This document shows positions 31,281-36,026 of a stretch of DNA of 64,000 nucleotides, in pieces (position 1 is the first letter of the stretch; each line of letters opens with the position of its first letter). The DNA lies in sequence record PZ179880.1; one strand, given 5' to 3'. The notes below the pieces were generated by a model that did not search any database, was not told the origin of the DNA, and was given only the letters and a program-made list of their open reading frames with translations. This DNA is from a phage. Position numbers and translations under genes: made by a program.

Positions 31281-31835
31281 TCACTTTGAAATCATAGTTG
31301 GAATGACAGAATCAAGATAAGTCTTTAACGCAATAGCTTCGTCTTTGGTAAATGTGACAATATGTGATCGAAAATCGTCAATTTGGCGAATAGTTAAGAC
31401 ATCTCCCTCTTCATAACATTTTGATACATTTAAAAGAGTTTCATCATTCTGATTGCAAGCGTTAGTAATAATAGCATTGCAATTTTTGAGCCATTTTAAA
31501 CTATGTTTTCTTTCATTAGAATAATAAAAATATTTAATCTTAGCTATAAAACTATCCCAATGGATAACTGATAAACACATTGACTCACTTTTAATATTAA
31601 ATCCTGGGCATGAAGAATAAAAATGAATTTTGTGCTCATCATTGATGCTTACTATTTTATCAGTATAAGGATATTCAATTTGGGTTAAATGAATGATTTC
31701 ACTAGGCGTAAAATATAGCATATCGTCTTCTTGCGTCAAACGATACATGTTATTTACTTTTTCTATAGCCAATTCACCAAAAAGCGGACTAACTTCTAAT
31801 ACTAATCGTTTCATATTAATCCTTTTTATTGGCAT
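31281..31835 (-). CDS. Hypothetical protein (tandem paralogue B)
   Basis: 184 aa; C-terminus DEAIALKTYLDSVIPTM. Confidence 0.55.
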   Translation of the reverse strand: MPIKRINMKRLVLEVSPLFGELAIEKVNNMYRLTQEDDMLYFTPSEIIHLTQIEYPYTDKIVSINDEHKIHFYSSCPGFNIKSESMCLSVIHWDSFIAKIKYFYYSNERKHSLKWLKNCNAIITNACNQNDETLLNVSKCYEEGDVLTIRQIDDFRSHIVTFTKDEAIALKTYLDSVIPTMISK

Positions 31836-32094
31836 GAATTTGTTCTAAAATTTTAGAGTATTCCTTTGTATCAGATTTACGTACAATCGATACACTATAA
31901 GGCATACTATCGGTATCTTTTATAAAGCGTTCCAAATGACACTCTAACAAAATTTCTGGGTTATAAATCGTGTACATCAAATTACCTGTTGCTCCACGAT
32001 ATTGACAGATTTCTACTGATTGAGCATCATTCCACAATTTTGTTAAGACTAAATCGCCTACTTCTAATTTAGGAAAGCCCATGTTATTCACCAA
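31816..32094 (-). CDS. Hypothetical protein
   Basis: 92 aa ORF. Confidence 0.45.
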   Translation of the reverse strand: MVNNMGFPKLEVGDLVLTKLWNDAQSVEICQYRGATGNLMYTIYNPEILLECHLERFIKDTDSMPYSVSIVRKSDTKEYSKILEQIHANKKD

Positions 32095-32269
32095 TTAAAG
32101 TTTCAATATAAGAATCAAGATTTACTTTAGCTTCTTCCATAAGAGTTTTGTATTTAATCTTGTTAGCATGTCCGGAGAAAGCTGATTCATCAATAATTGT
32201 TGATGTATGAACAGCTTTACTATACGTCTCAATTAATTCTCTTAATTTAAAAGCCTGCTCACTTGTCAT
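32084..32269 (-). CDS. Small acidic helical protein (small-protein family)
   Basis: 61 aa; N-terminal motif SEQAFKLRELIETY. Confidence 0.45.
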   Translation of the reverse strand: MTSEQAFKLRELIETYSKAVHTSTIIDESAFSGHANKIKYKTLMEEAKVNLDSYIETLIGE

Positions 32270-32430
32270 TACATACTCCTTTGAATAATATCAATAATGT
32301 TGTTCACCAGATTATAAGTAAACATTGGGTAATTATATTGAATCATCACATACACAACAAACAAAACTTTCATTCTCTTCTCCTTGGCAGTTGACAAGAT
32401 TACTATACCATAACCTTGCCAACTTGTAAA

Positions 32431-32604
32431 CCATTAAATGACGTTTTCAATAAAATTCTGAAGCTTTGTATGAGCATCAACCATGATTTTCAATTCTTCT
32501 TTAGCGAAAGCTGTACCTCTTTCACGAGAAGAACATTCATAGTCAGAAACTGCATTAGCATATTCTTCAATTAGCTTCATTAAAAACATCTGCTTTTCAG
32601 TTTT
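32431..32604 (-). CDS. Small acidic helical protein (small-protein family)
   Basis: Hand-translated 57 aa MKTEKQMFLMKLIEEYANAV...; not in ORF track. Confidence 0.4.
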
Positions 32605-32791
32605 CATTATTCCACCTAATCATTTCAAGATATTGAACTAACTTAGCTTTAGATTTATCCAAATCCTTTTTAGCTGCTTCTATACCATCGTATGAATATC
32701 CTTCACAATGCTCAACTGCTAATTGATATGAATCTATTTCAATATCACGTGCTAATTTAATGATTTTTTCAAACTGTTCGCGTGTTAGCAT
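32597..32791 (-). CDS. Small acidic helical protein (small-protein family)
   Basis: 64 aa; MLTREQFEKIIKLARD. Confidence 0.45.
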   Translation of the reverse strand: MLTREQFEKIIKLARDIEIDSYQLAVEHCEGYSYDGIEAAKKDLDKSKAKLVQYLEMIRWNNEN

Positions 32792-32793
32792 AC

Positions 32794-32973
32794 TTACACT
32801 CTCGTATTATGATCGATAATTTCATCAAGAAACATATCTAACGCTTCTACAGCATTATCAACTTTAGCTTCAAATTCTTCAATACCTGATAAGGCAAAGT
32901 TAATGCGTTCCTCATCTGCTTTGCGAATTAAAGCTATCAATTCCTTAATTTTATCCGCTTGTTCAATGCTAGT
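32794..32973 (-). CDS. Small acidic helical protein (small-protein family)
   Basis: Start trimmed to [17 protein letters not shown] (60 aa). Confidence 0.45.
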   Translation of the reverse strand, partial: TSIEQADKIKELIALIRKADEERINFALSGIEEFEAKVDNAVEALDMFLDEIIDHNTRV

Positions 32974-32975
32974 CA

Positions 32976-33164
32976 TTATTCCACCACATATGAAAGAGAG
33001 AATATTGCACACGCCATATGAGTTGCAACTTCATCACACATATCATAACGTTTCTTAAGAAGTTCTACAAGTTCTTCACTAGTGACTTCATCCATGTCGA
33101 CGAAAAAATCACCATTAATGATGACATAGATATTTCCTTCTTGATTAAGTGCTTCAATTTTCAT
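32976..33164 (-). CDS. Small acidic protein
   Basis: Start trimmed to [10 protein letters not shown] with AGGAG ribosome-binding site; ORF-track start lies upstream of the promoter. Confidence 0.45.
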
Positions 33165-33192
33165 GATGTTCTCCTCTTTATCCGATGGTTGT

Positions 33193-33222
33193 ATAGTACC
33201 ACAGCTCAAACGGAAAGTAAAC
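33193..33222 (-). promoter_or_regulatory. Early sigma70-type promoter
   Basis: Minus strand GTTTAC - 18 bp - TGG TACTAT. Confidence 0.55.
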
Positions 33223-33259
33223 CGGTAAAATGAAAAAAGTCTCCCGAAGGAGACTAATG

Positions 33260-33646
33260 TTATTCGAGGGAAAGAAGATACTTACTCTGGTAAAACATTC
33301 CAGTAATATCATCTATCGTGCTTTGGATGGCTGGAGGCATTTCTTTATAAATGCTGTTAGATTGGTCTAGTATGCGATCAATCATTTTAATTGTGTCGGT
33401 AGGAAGTTTACTAGCATCTGGAATTGAAGGTGTGTATTTTCTACCAGAATACCCCAAATATTGCTCACCAAATTTATCAATCAAATCTGGCAACTCGGAG
33501 AAAATAAAATCGTATGCTTTGTGTCTAGCATAACTTTTAGTTTCAAAATGTGCAGAATGAAAATAAGCTTGTGCAGCCATTAATAAACCTAAGTATTCAT
33601 CTGCCTTTGAAGGTTTTCCACTTTGTGAAAAGTCGCTGAATTTCAT
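33260..33646 (-). CDS. Hypothetical protein (rI.-1-like)
   Basis: 128 aa ORF immediately downstream of rI. Confidence 0.55.
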
Positions 33647-33936
33647 TCAGTCTCCAATTTAATGTTCATAATTCTAGCGTATGATTGTGCCATCTCCGCG
33701 CCTCGCTCTATACATTCAAAATCGGAAGAGCACGGGTCATTTTTATAAGTCGTTCGCATAAAACTATAGAACTGTTCAGATGATTCTACGCTTTTGTTTT
33801 CAAAAAGCATATAAACGTGTCTAATACCAGATTCCATAAATTTATCAAAATGAGGATCGACATTCGCTTCAATTGGTGGAGATAAAGCAAACGCTAATCC
33901 TAGCATGGCAAATAGTGCCGTTGCTTTTAAGGCCAT
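33643..33936 (-). CDS. rI: Lysis inhibition regulator RI (antiholin)
   Basis: 97 aa, near-identical to T4 RI (MALKATALFAMLGL...NVDPHFDKFMESGIRHVYMLF...). Confidence 0.93.
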   Translation of the reverse strand: MALKATALFAMLGLAFALSPPIEANVDPHFDKFMESGIRHVYMLFENKSVESSEQFYSFMRTTYKNDPCSSDFECIERGAEMAQSYARIMNIKLETE

Positions 33937-33948
33937 AAAGGCCTCCTA

Positions 33949-34161
33949 TCATTTTTGTCCTGTATTTACTTTATGCCGATGCACGGCCTTAACTTTATCA
34001 AGGTATTTTTCAAAATTTCGCAATCTAGTATAGTCTGCCGGAGATTGGTTGAGTGATACTTCTCGACGCAAAGCTGAAATGATATTTCCAACTTCCCTAC
34101 GAATTTCATCTAATTGAAGAACAGTAAGATTGCGAAGTTGCTTTTCAGTTAATTGTAGCAT
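33949..34161 (-). CDS. Hypothetical protein
   Basis: 70 aa ORF between tk and rI. Confidence 0.5.
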
Positions 34162-34203
34162 ATATACCCCTTTAGTTAGATAAACCTATTTATAACTTTT
34201 GCA

Positions 34204-34785
34204 CTAACCGAGCTTTTTAGTTAATTCATTCCAATGTTTTCTACACAAAGAAACATAAATTTCATCACCAATACAGATTTGATTACCTTCTTTAACTGGT
34301 GTTCCATCTTCCATTAATCGAGCTGTCATAATCGCTTTTTTACCGCAATGACAAACTGCCTTTAGTTCAATAAGTTTATCTGCAATCGCCAAAAGTTCTT
34401 TAGAACCTTCAAATAATTTTCCGGCGAAATCAGTCCTTAGACCATAAGCCATAACAGGAACATTATATGTATCAACAATTCGACTTAATTGATGCACCTG
34501 TTCAGTTTTTAAAAACTGGGCTTCATCTACAAATACACAATGAATATCTTTTTGTGCTTCAGCCCATTTATAGAACTCAAAAATATCCATATCATCCGTA
34601 ATAATATTCGCTTCCTGCTTAATTCCAATGCGAGAAACGACTTCACAGACAGAATCGCGAGTATCAATAGCAGGCTTAAGAACTAATACACCCATTCCGC
34701 GTTCTTTATAATTATGTGCAGCAGTCAAAAGAGAAGCAGATTTTCCAGCATTCATTGCTGCGTAAGTAAAAATTAAACTCGCCAT
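34204..34785 (-). CDS. tk: Thymidine kinase
   Basis: 193 aa; P-loop AAMNAGKS; C-terminal Zn cysteines. Confidence 0.93.
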   Translation of the reverse strand: MASLIFTYAAMNAGKSASLLTAAHNYKERGMGVLVLKPAIDTRDSVCEVVSRIGIKQEANIITDDMDIFEFYKWAEAQKDIHCVFVDEAQFLKTEQVHQLSRIVDTYNVPVMAYGLRTDFAGKLFEGSKELLAIADKLIELKAVCHCGKKAIMTARLMEDGTPVKEGNQICIGDEIYVSLCRKHWNELTKKLG

Positions 34786-34794
34786 ATCACCTTC

Positions 34795-34980
34795 TTAAAG
34801 CATATTCACATAAGCTATTAATTCGTTTTCTTTCTTATCAAACCGATCAGCAAATTCTTCTTGCTGTTCGGGAGATAGCGGGCCGTATTCATCATAAAAG
34901 GTGTTTGCTTCTGTATGCTCATCTAGAAGTTCATGGATAAGCTCAAACAATTTATCTTTTTGTTCTTTACTCAGACTCAT
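34795..34980 (-). CDS. Small acidic helical protein
   Basis: 61 aa; MSLSKEQKDKLFELIHELL. Confidence 0.45.
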   Translation of the reverse strand: MSLSKEQKDKLFELIHELLDEHTEANTFYDEYGPLSPEQQEEFADRFDKKENELIAYVNML

Positions 34981-35146
34981 ATATTAATTTCCAGGAGTTT
35001 TAAAATAATTCGCTTTTGCTTAAATATTTCCATAGTTAAATGACCAGTATCTTTTTGACCGATTCCAATGGCAAAACCTTTATTGACAGCGAGTTCAATT
35101 AAATTATCAAGCTCACGTAACACTTCATACTGTAACTCAAAACTAT

Positions 35147-35359
35147 TCATTTCGGTTTACCTTCTTTAACGAAATCTGGATAAGGATAAAATCCCGAATA
35201 AAATCCTTCACCTTTATGATTGATGCATCCTTTATTAGAACAATAACACCAATAATCGAAATCACAAGCCATTTCATCGTTGCATAAAGCAAAAACAACT
35301 GGCCATTTACACTTTTCACAATGGGCATTTTTAAGAATACTAGTTTGGCTCATAACCAT
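35147..35359 (-). CDS. Small cysteine-rich (likely Zn-binding) protein
   Basis: 70 aa with at least 8 Cys (CEKCKW...CNDEMACDFDYWCYCSNKGC). Confidence 0.5.
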   Translation of the reverse strand: MVMSQTSILKNAHCEKCKWPVVFALCNDEMACDFDYWCYCSNKGCINHKGEGFYSGFYPYPDFVKEGKPK

Positions 35360-35577
35360 GTAACCTTTAAGCAGTATTCTTCTACATGCTGTTTACGACC
35401 TTTCTTATCAATAAAGGTATATTCAACGAATGTTCCAATGTAGTCTTTATCTACATCATGCGGACTATTAATTGGACATTTAGTACGGCAAATGCGTTCC
35501 CATTGACGAATAATTACTGCCTTATTCTTTGGGTCATATGGATGTGGATAATGTATATTCATAATAACGGTTCCCAA
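35350..35577 (-). CDS. Hypothetical protein
   Basis: 75 aa ORF. Confidence 0.45.
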   Translation of the reverse strand: MGTVIMNIHYPHPYDPKNKAVIIRQWERICRTKCPINSPHDVDKDYIGTFVEYTFIDKKGRKQHVEEYCLKVTWL

Positions 35578-36026
35578 TCAACAATCACAATTTCTAATTT
35601 AGAGGAATATGTATCTAAAATCCCCTCAATAATATCCCAGTTCCCTTTACCTATGCCTGCACCAATCCTAGGCATATAGATTGTAGGTTTAATCAGTTTA
35701 TTTTCACCAAACTCATTTAATTCTAACATACAATTCATTAAAGCGGAATACTCAAAATTTGGCCCTGGTTGAAATTGAGTATAAAGGTTGAAGCAATACG
35801 CTTTATGAGTCCTAAAGTATTTTTCATAGACTGAGTAAGAACCGAGTTTAGTTACATCACCCCATTCAGTCTGTAATTTATCAGCTTCCAAAATTTTAGG
35901 GAAAGCTTTGGTTAATTGACCCGCTACGCCTGAACCCATAGTATGAAAACAATTGCATCCATGCGCAATATTTTTACCTTCAGCGAAAAGGGCGACAATA
36001 TCGCCCTTGATATATTTTACAATCAT
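35559..36026 (-). CDS. Macrodomain protein (TARG1/DarG-like predicted ADP-ribosyl hydrolase)
   Basis: 155 aa; GD-x11-AHGCNC-x3-MGSGVAGQL resembles the TARG1/DarG macrodomain signature. Confidence 0.6.
   Translation of the reverse strand: MIVKYIKGDIVALFAEGKNIAHGCNCFHTMGSGVAGQLTKAFPKILEADKLQTEWGDVTKLGSYSVYEKYFRTHKAYCFNLYTQFQPGPNFEYSALMNCMLELNEFGENKLIKPTIYMPRIGAGIGKGNWDIIEGILDTYSSKLEIVIVDWEPLL

Follow-up and report, generated by a model that had tools for sequence, protein, structure and literature searches.

The DNA around the tk gene in a 64,000-nucleotide (nt) stretch of phage sequence (record PZ179880.1; the whole stretch is called the window here) raises two questions: whether a set of short open reading frames (ORFs) on its minus strand belong to one protein family, and what such a family would do for the phage. 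A first-pass annotation, made from the sequence without database searches, had proposed a tandem family of about five small, acidic, helical proteins that share an N-terminal motif beginning S/T-x-E-Q, and had suggested host-takeover inhibitors or DNA mimics. Five ORFs were found to be real paralogous genes of the lineage-restricted family DUF7438. They are an ORF of 61 amino acids (aa), mobD.2a, mobD.3 and mobD.4 in one cluster, and a tk.2-type ORF directly upstream of tk (Table 1). The family is already catalogued as Pfam DUF7438, as PHROG 653 and its relatives, and in phage T4 as mobD.2a, mobD.3, mobD.4, tk.1 and tk.2. The finding thus re-identifies a catalogued domain of unknown function, whose near-identical orthologues are annotated in hundreds of genomes.

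Source genome and gene order

Bases 31800-35200 of the window shared 99.0% identity with Yersinia phage PYPS2T and 97-98% with many Tequatrovirus genomes; the window was therefore assigned to a Tequatrovirus (T4-like) genome. The minus-strand gene order agreed with the annotated maps of T4, RB3 and T2 and was syntenic with T4 from mobD.1 through tk.4. It ran nrdC.11, mobD.1, [Tudor-domain ORF, 61-aa ORF], mobD.2, mobD.2a, mobD.3, mobD.4 and mobD.5, and continued with rI.-1, rI, rI.1, tk, tk.x, tk.3, tk.4 and vs. Orthologues of the window members, with 89-100% identity, occupied the same genomic positions in hundreds of Tequatrovirus genomes. Compared with the T4 set, the window phage lacked tk.1, carried a tk.2 allele unlike that of T4 (54% identity), and had the extra 61-aa member with the adjoining Tudor-domain ORF, both of which were missing from T4 and T2.

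Relationship of the five open reading frames

The Pfam model PF24219 (DUF7438; 57 positions, gathering cutoff of 25 bits) matched the five motif-bearing ORFs end to end with scores of 49.6-68.5 bits, each match extending from model positions 1-3 through 56-57. PHROGs assigned the members to the cross-hitting families 653, 2758 and 4859. Pairwise protein identity among the paralogs was merely 20-37%, so that BLAST by itself was marginal; the strongest pair was the 61-aa ORF and mobD.2a (E value 1e-4).

Profile hidden Markov models (HMMs) were built by leaving out one paralog at a time, each profile containing the other four paralog groups with their orthologues, and all 1206 ORFs of the window were scored. 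In five of five trials the held-out paralog was the top-scoring ORF outside the training set (E values 3e-6 to 0.27). When the groups were aligned with each other by hhalign, family pairs gave P values of 1.5e-4 to 0.26, six of the ten pairs lying below 0.005, whereas none of 15 pairs with the controls mobD.5, rI.1 and a 57-aa ORF at 34977-35150 fell below 0.05. The weak family pairs were mobD.2a with mobD.3 or with the tk.2-type member (P 0.2-0.3).

The proposal of related small ORFs with a common N-terminal motif was thus borne out by Pfam, by the leave-one-out HMMs and by hhalign against controls; statistical support for the motif family, set beforehand as its test, came from the profiles and from hhalign. 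The ORFs and N-termini listed in the first-pass annotation were all present on the minus strand where it had placed them, with sizes of 57-64 aa. Its count of about five members within 32084-33164 was right in that the paralogs are real, but four members lie there, since mobD.5 is unrelated. The array is likewise clustered as described, but it is not strictly consecutive: between mobD.2a and the 61-aa member lie the 34-aa mobD.2 and an early promoter.

Three neighbouring ORFs were tried as members and rejected. The mobD.5 product lacked the motif, had no DUF7438 or family-HMM match, and gave hhalign P values of at least 0.055 against every member group. The rI.1 product, whose N-terminus (TEKQL) bears a superficial likeness to the motif, was rejected by Pfam, family HMM and hhalign. 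The same three analyses rejected the 57-aa ORF at 34977-35150; none of the three had a DUF7438 match in the Pfam scan. The family HMM detected no member beyond the five among the 1206 window ORFs, and the complete genome of the nearest relative had exactly five members, with none elsewhere among its 3168 ORFs.

Selection and dispensability

The ratio of nonsynonymous to synonymous polymorphism (pN/pS), computed across 5-10 related loci, was 0.06-0.33 for the members (61-aa member, 0.33; mobD.2a, 0.08; mobD.3, 0.15; mobD.4, 0.25). These values were similar to those of rI (0.09), tk (0.11) and mobD.5. The five genes are under purifying selection.

In T4, knockdowns of mobD.2a, mobD.3, mobD.4, tk.1 and tk.2 were scored 'Not Fit', which denotes no fitness effect (PMC11879866, supplement 15), and a viable genome-reduced T4 had lost the segment from nrdC.11 through mobD.3 (PMC9825161). 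The members are individually dispensable in the laboratory host. Damaged copies were also present in close relatives: mobD.3 of PYPS2T was without the first few codons, encoding the N-terminus, that are found in the window, and mobD.2a of the T4 reference was cut to 38 aa, the full 57 aa being kept in T4T, T2 and the window. Judging by these copies, single members appear to be expendable.

Transcription and translation

One early-promoter-like site upstream of mobD.5 drives mobD.5, mobD.4, mobD.3 and mobD.2a, whereas transcription of mobD.2, the 61-aa member and then the Tudor-domain ORF comes from another early promoter. The tk.2-type copy sits in the tk operon. The promoter upstream of mobD.2 gave 10 of 12 matches in the promoter scan, with a TG extension, and its hexamers were invariant across T4T, the window and Mosigvirus. 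Judging from T4 coordinates, and not from a mapped 5' end, it would correspond to the T4 early promoters Pe57.9/Pe57954 named in PMC6024815. The site upstream of mobD.5 gave 8 of 12 matches and was not called by the scan; in T4, primer extension has placed the counterpart of this site, the mobD.5 promoter (PMC1702504).

Four of the five members had a plausible Shine-Dalgarno sequence (AAGGAG, AGGTGG or GGTGG) in front of them; for mobD.3 and the tk.2-type member it was weak. The 61-aa member had AAGGAG and overlapped the stop codon of mobD.2 in the form TAATG; mobD.2a had AGGTGG and an 11-nt overlap with the 3' end of mobD.3; mobD.4 had GGTGG and overlapped the stop codon of mobD.5, again as TAATG; and the tk.2-type member had an ATGA start/stop overlap with its upstream ORF. 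Overlaps with a neighbouring ORF at the start, counted for three of the five members, suggest translational coupling.

In the time-resolved transcriptome and proteome of T4 (PMC9697503, supplements 4 and 6), mobD.3 and mobD.4 were classed as early RNA and early protein, tk.1 and tk.2 as early RNA and middle protein, and mobD.2a and mobD.5 as early RNA with no protein class. The concern that the ORFs might not be translated thus did not hold for the T4 orthologues, MobD.3, MobD.4, Tk.1 and Tk.2 all having been detected.

Charge and predicted fold

AlphaFold2 models made with family alignments predicted an antiparallel two-helix hairpin for the 61-aa member (helices 3-28 and 34-60; predicted local distance difference test score, pLDDT, 86) and a two-helix hairpin for the tk.2-type member (helices 5-32 and 37-60; pLDDT 90.9). 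Each member is predicted to be a single antiparallel hairpin of about 60 residues, and the expectation of helical proteins agreed with the hairpins of the two members modelled.

Columns conserved across the paralogs were E4, L12, I13 and L51, which were mostly hydrophobic and mostly at core positions; a conserved C-terminal stretch, L-x-x-[YF]-[IVL], fell in helix 2. Because the conserved columns are mostly core, the N-terminal S/T-x-E-Q with its heptad-like hydrophobic residues looks like the start of helix 1 followed by a hydrophobic stripe in the models. Both the N-terminal motif and L-x-x-[YF]-[IVL] look like positions of helix start and core in this fold rather than an active site.

The description of the family as acidic applied in part, two members only being strongly acidic. 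Net charge was -8.4 for mobD.4 and -10.3 for the tk.2-type member (isoelectric point, pI, 4.3-4.4), but it was -2.4 to -3.4 (pI 5.0-5.3) for the 61-aa member, mobD.2a and mobD.3, which were ordinary among the small ORFs of the window, 44% of 43 such ORFs having a pI below 5.5.

A Foldseek search of the PDB gave no match with an E value below 0.4; the best were DUF683, Rop (TM score 0.85), Fap1 and Aqs1. The best fold matches in BFVD were uncharacterised proteins of about 60 aa, mostly of T4-like phages. The two-helix hairpin is among the commonest folds, and the fold-search matches were generic. A family-profile search of all PDB sequences (E value up to 10) found no solved relative.

Distribution and allele exchange

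A word-indexed protein search returned orthologues of the five paralogs only, all of them in T4-like phages. An exhaustive profile search of 1.84 billion representatives gave 25 matches with E values below 1e-3; the named ones were from Tevenvirinae (Tequatrovirus, Mosigvirus including RB69, and others) or Kuravirus, and several were unnamed metagenomic sequences. Tequatrovirus, Mosigvirus and also a third T4-like lineage all kept the placement of the family beside tk and rI.

About 64 genomes of Kuravirus (phiEco32-like podophages) had a 53-aa tk.2-type DUF7438 member. In phiEco32 (EU330206.1, 3501-3662) it was gene phi32_28 (gene 28), at the end of a replication and nucleotide-metabolism operon, where neither a tk nor an rI homologue is annotated in the locus. 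The Kuravirus member shared 58% identity with a variant on a 173-kb T4-like contig and aligned with the tk.2 group at P = 3e-12 in hhalign. The Kuravirus copy indicates horizontal transfer between unrelated virulent coliphages. As a separate observation on this locus, an HNH endonuclease gene lay three genes upstream of phi32_28.

The number of family copies in the region ranged from two to five across Tevenvirinae loci. The tk.1 gene was an additional divergent member in T4, T2 and Mosigvirus, and the 61-aa member occurred in 193 phage records only. The tk.2 site, compared in 742 phage records, had two allele classes, about 375 records with at least 95% identity and 293 below 60%. The window allele was 54% identical to that of T4T, with the flanking tk, tk.3 and tk.4 at 99-100%, and 75% identical to that of a phage whose tk was merely 71% identical. 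Within orthologous groups, substitutions and indels were concentrated at the loop and at the helix ends next to it, the paired termini being almost invariant; in mobD.4 the indels were confined to the loop.

Proposed function and alternatives

The reading that we favour, tentatively and at somewhat less than an even chance, is that the DUF7438 proteins are early accessory hairpins, probably paired into four-helix bundles and probably binding host proteins, with paralogs and alleles that differ in specificity. By analogy, a lone hairpin of about 60 residues would probably form a four-helix bundle by pairing with a second copy of itself or with a paralog translated alongside it; Rop and Aqs1, which are stand-alone hairpin analogues, pair in this way. 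The protein would then probably be a stoichiometric binder of a host (E. coli or enterobacterial) protein early in infection, its accessory role being to modulate the host or to counter its defences. Paralogs and alleles probably differ in specificity, which may reside in the variable loop end.

The strongest argument for a host-directed over a phage-internal role is the Kuravirus member, because Kuravirus shares only its host with T4-like phages. The same direction is indicated, circumstantially, by the dispensability of the genes, by their presence/absence variation and by the swapping of alleles. Early transcription, the protein detected in T4, the lack of a fitness cost when members are knocked down or deleted, the variable copies and the transfer to Kuravirus are compatible with a host-directed accessory role.

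Several points weigh against this reading. Redundancy, or a minor role within the phage itself, would account equally well for knockdowns with no phenotype, and the variability of the loop may simply reflect relaxed constraint. The protein evidence comes from T4 orthologues only: the 61-aa member has no T4 orthologue, the tk.2-type protein of the window is merely 54% identical to the Tk.2 detected by proteomics, and T4 mobD.2a has no protein class. The DUF7438 matches are curated membership and not independent proof, since the Pfam model was presumably built from the same T4-like proteins. Finally, searches of Pfam, PHROGs, NCBIfam, PADLOC and PDB sequences returned nothing informative on a target or phenotype.

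In the literature searched, no mention of DUF7438 was found; mobD.x, tk.1 and tk.2 appeared only incidentally (deletability, a promoter used as a control, omics tables); and no toxicity or binding data for the members were found. The HIDEN-SEQ preprint and the DarTG1 paper did not mention these genes.

A bolder version of the host-binder reading, which is speculative and rather unlikely, is that DUF7438 proteins are diversifying binders of host targets, for example inhibitors or decoys of anti-phage defence, built on a conserved hairpin scaffold with a variable loop end, with alleles swapped among T4-like genera and even into phiEco32-like podophages, and possibly with mixed four-helix bundles of paralogs. 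If true, the best-studied phage would yield a compact scaffold of a new kind for anti-defence or host takeover.

The phage-internal, Rop-like RNA-binding and non-functional explanations were ranked below host binding. Under the first, the hairpins would serve as small adaptors or regulators of machinery that belongs to the phage itself, such as the tk/nrd enzymes of nucleotide metabolism or the lysis inhibition of rI.-1, rI and rI.1. The three rI genes lie between the two DUF7438 clusters, and the neighbouring accessory genes rI.-1 and rI.1 have been implicated in lysis inhibition (PMC2962797). Conserved placement beside tk and the rI cluster in three T4-like lineages, overlaps that suggest coupled translation and evident purifying selection also fit such a role. 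It is nevertheless unlikely: the Kuravirus member occupies a locus without an annotated tk or rI homologue, copy number varies, with mobD.2a truncated in the T4 reference and mobD.3 in PYPS2T, and knockdowns had no fitness effect.

Still less probable is that the acidic members are DNA or nucleic-acid mimics, whose phosphate-like pattern of charge would block an enzyme of the host that binds DNA, for instance a restriction nuclease or one of the RecBCD type. Phages do have small DNA mimics that are helical and dimeric, lambda Gam and T7 Gp5.9 among them. The family resembles T4 Arn, T7 Ocr, Gp5.9 and Gam in being early (as judged from T4 orthologues), dispensable and acidic, and two members, mobD.4 and the tk.2-type protein, carry their charge over 60-61 residues, at a density comparable to that of the known mimics. 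The other three members, however, have charges in the normal range for small ORFs of the window, the positions conserved across paralogs are mainly hydrophobic core and not acidic surface, and neither the Foldseek search of the PDB nor the PDB profile search gave a sequence or specific fold match to a known mimic. The DNA-mimic idea is possible for mobD.4 and the tk.2-type member; as a general account of the family it is not supported.

It is very improbable that the members form RNA-binding four-helix bundles like that of Rop, which early in infection would modulate the interactions of RNA with RNA or with protein. Rop, the ColE1 repressor of primer, is a homodimeric four-helix bundle, and its fold does match the phage hairpin. 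The match was no better than to hundreds of unrelated hairpins, the fold being a very common one, and no sequence relationship was detectable: there was no Pfam Rop match at E values up to 1, and Rop was missing from the PDB profile search even at 10. The family is moreover acidic, and no basic or aromatic position of the surface is conserved from paralog to paralog. Aqs1, which Pseudomonas phage DMS3 makes early, is a small protein whose target is LasR, a regulator of the host. It likewise showed no sequence similarity to the T4-like members and comes from a different phage of a different host; its likeness would lie in the modelled hairpin fold.

That the ORFs are spurious or are decaying duplicates in an AT-rich early region, as the decay of individual copies in some strains (38-aa mobD.2a of the T4 reference, mobD.3 of PYPS2T) and the phenotype-free knockdowns might suggest, is largely refuted by the pN/pS of every member and by T4 proteomics, and is further opposed by the persistence of orthologues across genera and in Kuravirus and by the Shine-Dalgarno sequences and start/stop overlaps.

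Among virulent phages T4 serves as the reference, and about half of its genes are still without a function. The family accounts for five function-less T4 genes in one 3-kb stretch, which are under selection and have been exchanged between unrelated coliphages; the products of at least four of the T4 orthologues are made early in infection. If the members bind host defence or takeover targets, a very small and easily engineered scaffold would join the anti-defence repertoire, and such binding would explain the mosaic hot spot next to tk. Given the evolutionary pattern, the family is a reasonable candidate for targeted experiments.

Features in and around the array

The coordinates of the members and of the features among them are listed in Table 1. 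The true start of mobD.4, according to the annotation in relatives, is the ATG at 32976 and not the upstream GTG given in the list of ORFs.

Table 1. Members of the DUF7438 family and adjacent features in the window
Feature	Position	Strand	Remarks
DUF7438 member, 61 aa	32084-32269	minus	RB3_102-like, no T4 counterpart; PF24219, 57.8 bits; PHROG 4859, 5e-39
mobD.2, 34 aa, hydrophobic, non-member	32269-32373	minus	Annotated mobD.2 in RB3, T4T and T2; no family HMM match
Early promoter, T4-type	32402-32430	minus	GTTTACA, 17 nt, TG-TATAGT; upstream of mobD.2 and the 61-aa member
mobD.2a, DUF7438 member, 57 aa	32434-32607	minus	PF24219, 54.2 bits; PHROG 2758
mobD.3, DUF7438 member, 64 aa	32597-32791	minus	PF24219, 64.1 bits; PHROG 653
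mobD.4, DUF7438 member, 60 aa	32794-32976	minus	PF24219, 49.6 bits; PHROG 653
mobD.5, 62 aa, non-member, first gene of operon	32976-33164	minus	PHROG 3024 only; no DUF7438 match
Early-promoter-like sequence	33193-33222	minus	GTTTAC, 18 nt, TACTAT; upstream of mobD.5; read from the sequence
Terminator hairpin after rI.-1	33238-33255	minus	Rho-independent, found by scan
DUF7438 member directly upstream of tk, 61 aa	34795-34980	minus	Position of T4 tk.2; 54% identity; PF24219, 68.5 bits

Two misleading database labels are corrected by the analysis. The label 'helicase loader' (PHROG 4859; T4 gp59-type) for the 61-aa member was unsupported, its sole Pfam match being DUF7438; a separate DNA helicase loader of about 217 aa is annotated elsewhere in the nearest complete genome (PYPS2T gp081), and the label appears to have been mis-propagated. 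The label 'molybdopterin-guanine dinucleotide biosynthesis protein MobD', present in several GenBank records, was rejected because no MobA/MobB-type match was found in Pfam or NCBIfam; it evidently derives from the T4 gene names mobD.x, in which mobD denotes a homing endonuclease. In addition, rI.-1 was labelled 'starvation-inducible transcriptional regulator' in GenBank/RefSeq annotations of relatives.

The mobD.2 gene encodes a 34-aa hydrophobic peptide, MKVLFVVYVMIQYNYPMFTYNLVNNIIDIIQRSM, which may be a conserved small membrane protein. When the region 32000-33250 was used as a query, only 32244-32431, comprising mobD.2 and the promoter, aligned with Mosigvirus at the nucleotide level (71-73%). 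A run-on gene call spanning mobD.2a and mobD.2 matched Pfam PF26864 besides PF24219.

Directly downstream of the 61-aa member, an ORF at 31816-32082 on the minus strand (about 88 aa, the annotated length in RB3) matched Pfam Phage_tudor (PF24144) with 136 bits. The Tudor-domain ORF and the 61-aa ORF behave as an insertion/deletion cassette, since T4 and T2 lack both and mobD.2 abuts mobD.1 there.

Upstream of the tk.2-type allele, the segment 34977-35359 held two further minus-strand ORFs: the unrelated 57-aa ORF (PHROG 3452; RB32ORF110c-like), followed by a 70-aa cysteine-rich ORF (RB32ORF111c-like) with the pattern C-x2-C ... C-x-C ... C, which may be a zinc ribbon. In T4, tk.1 and tk.2 lie upstream of tk in place of the tk.2-type allele and the 57-aa ORF of the window. 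Because T2 carries all these ORFs, the region upstream of tk is a mosaic of small cassettes.

A second gene with swapped alleles in the same operon as the tk.2-type member is tk.4, which encodes a macro-domain protein (35559-36026, minus strand). It was 100% identical to tk.4 of T4 and T2 and 58% identical to that of RB3 and phage IsaacDaniel, whose neighbouring genes were 93-100% identical to those of the window. A counter-defence role of tk.4 would be plausible, because macro domains remove ADP-ribose.

The terminator between rI.-1 and the mobD.5 promoter consisted of a perfect 7-bp GC-rich hairpin (AGTCTCC TTCG GGAGACT), after which the minus strand has a T-run. The hairpin also scored as terminator-like on the plus strand, and it is an annotated terminator in phage OE5505.

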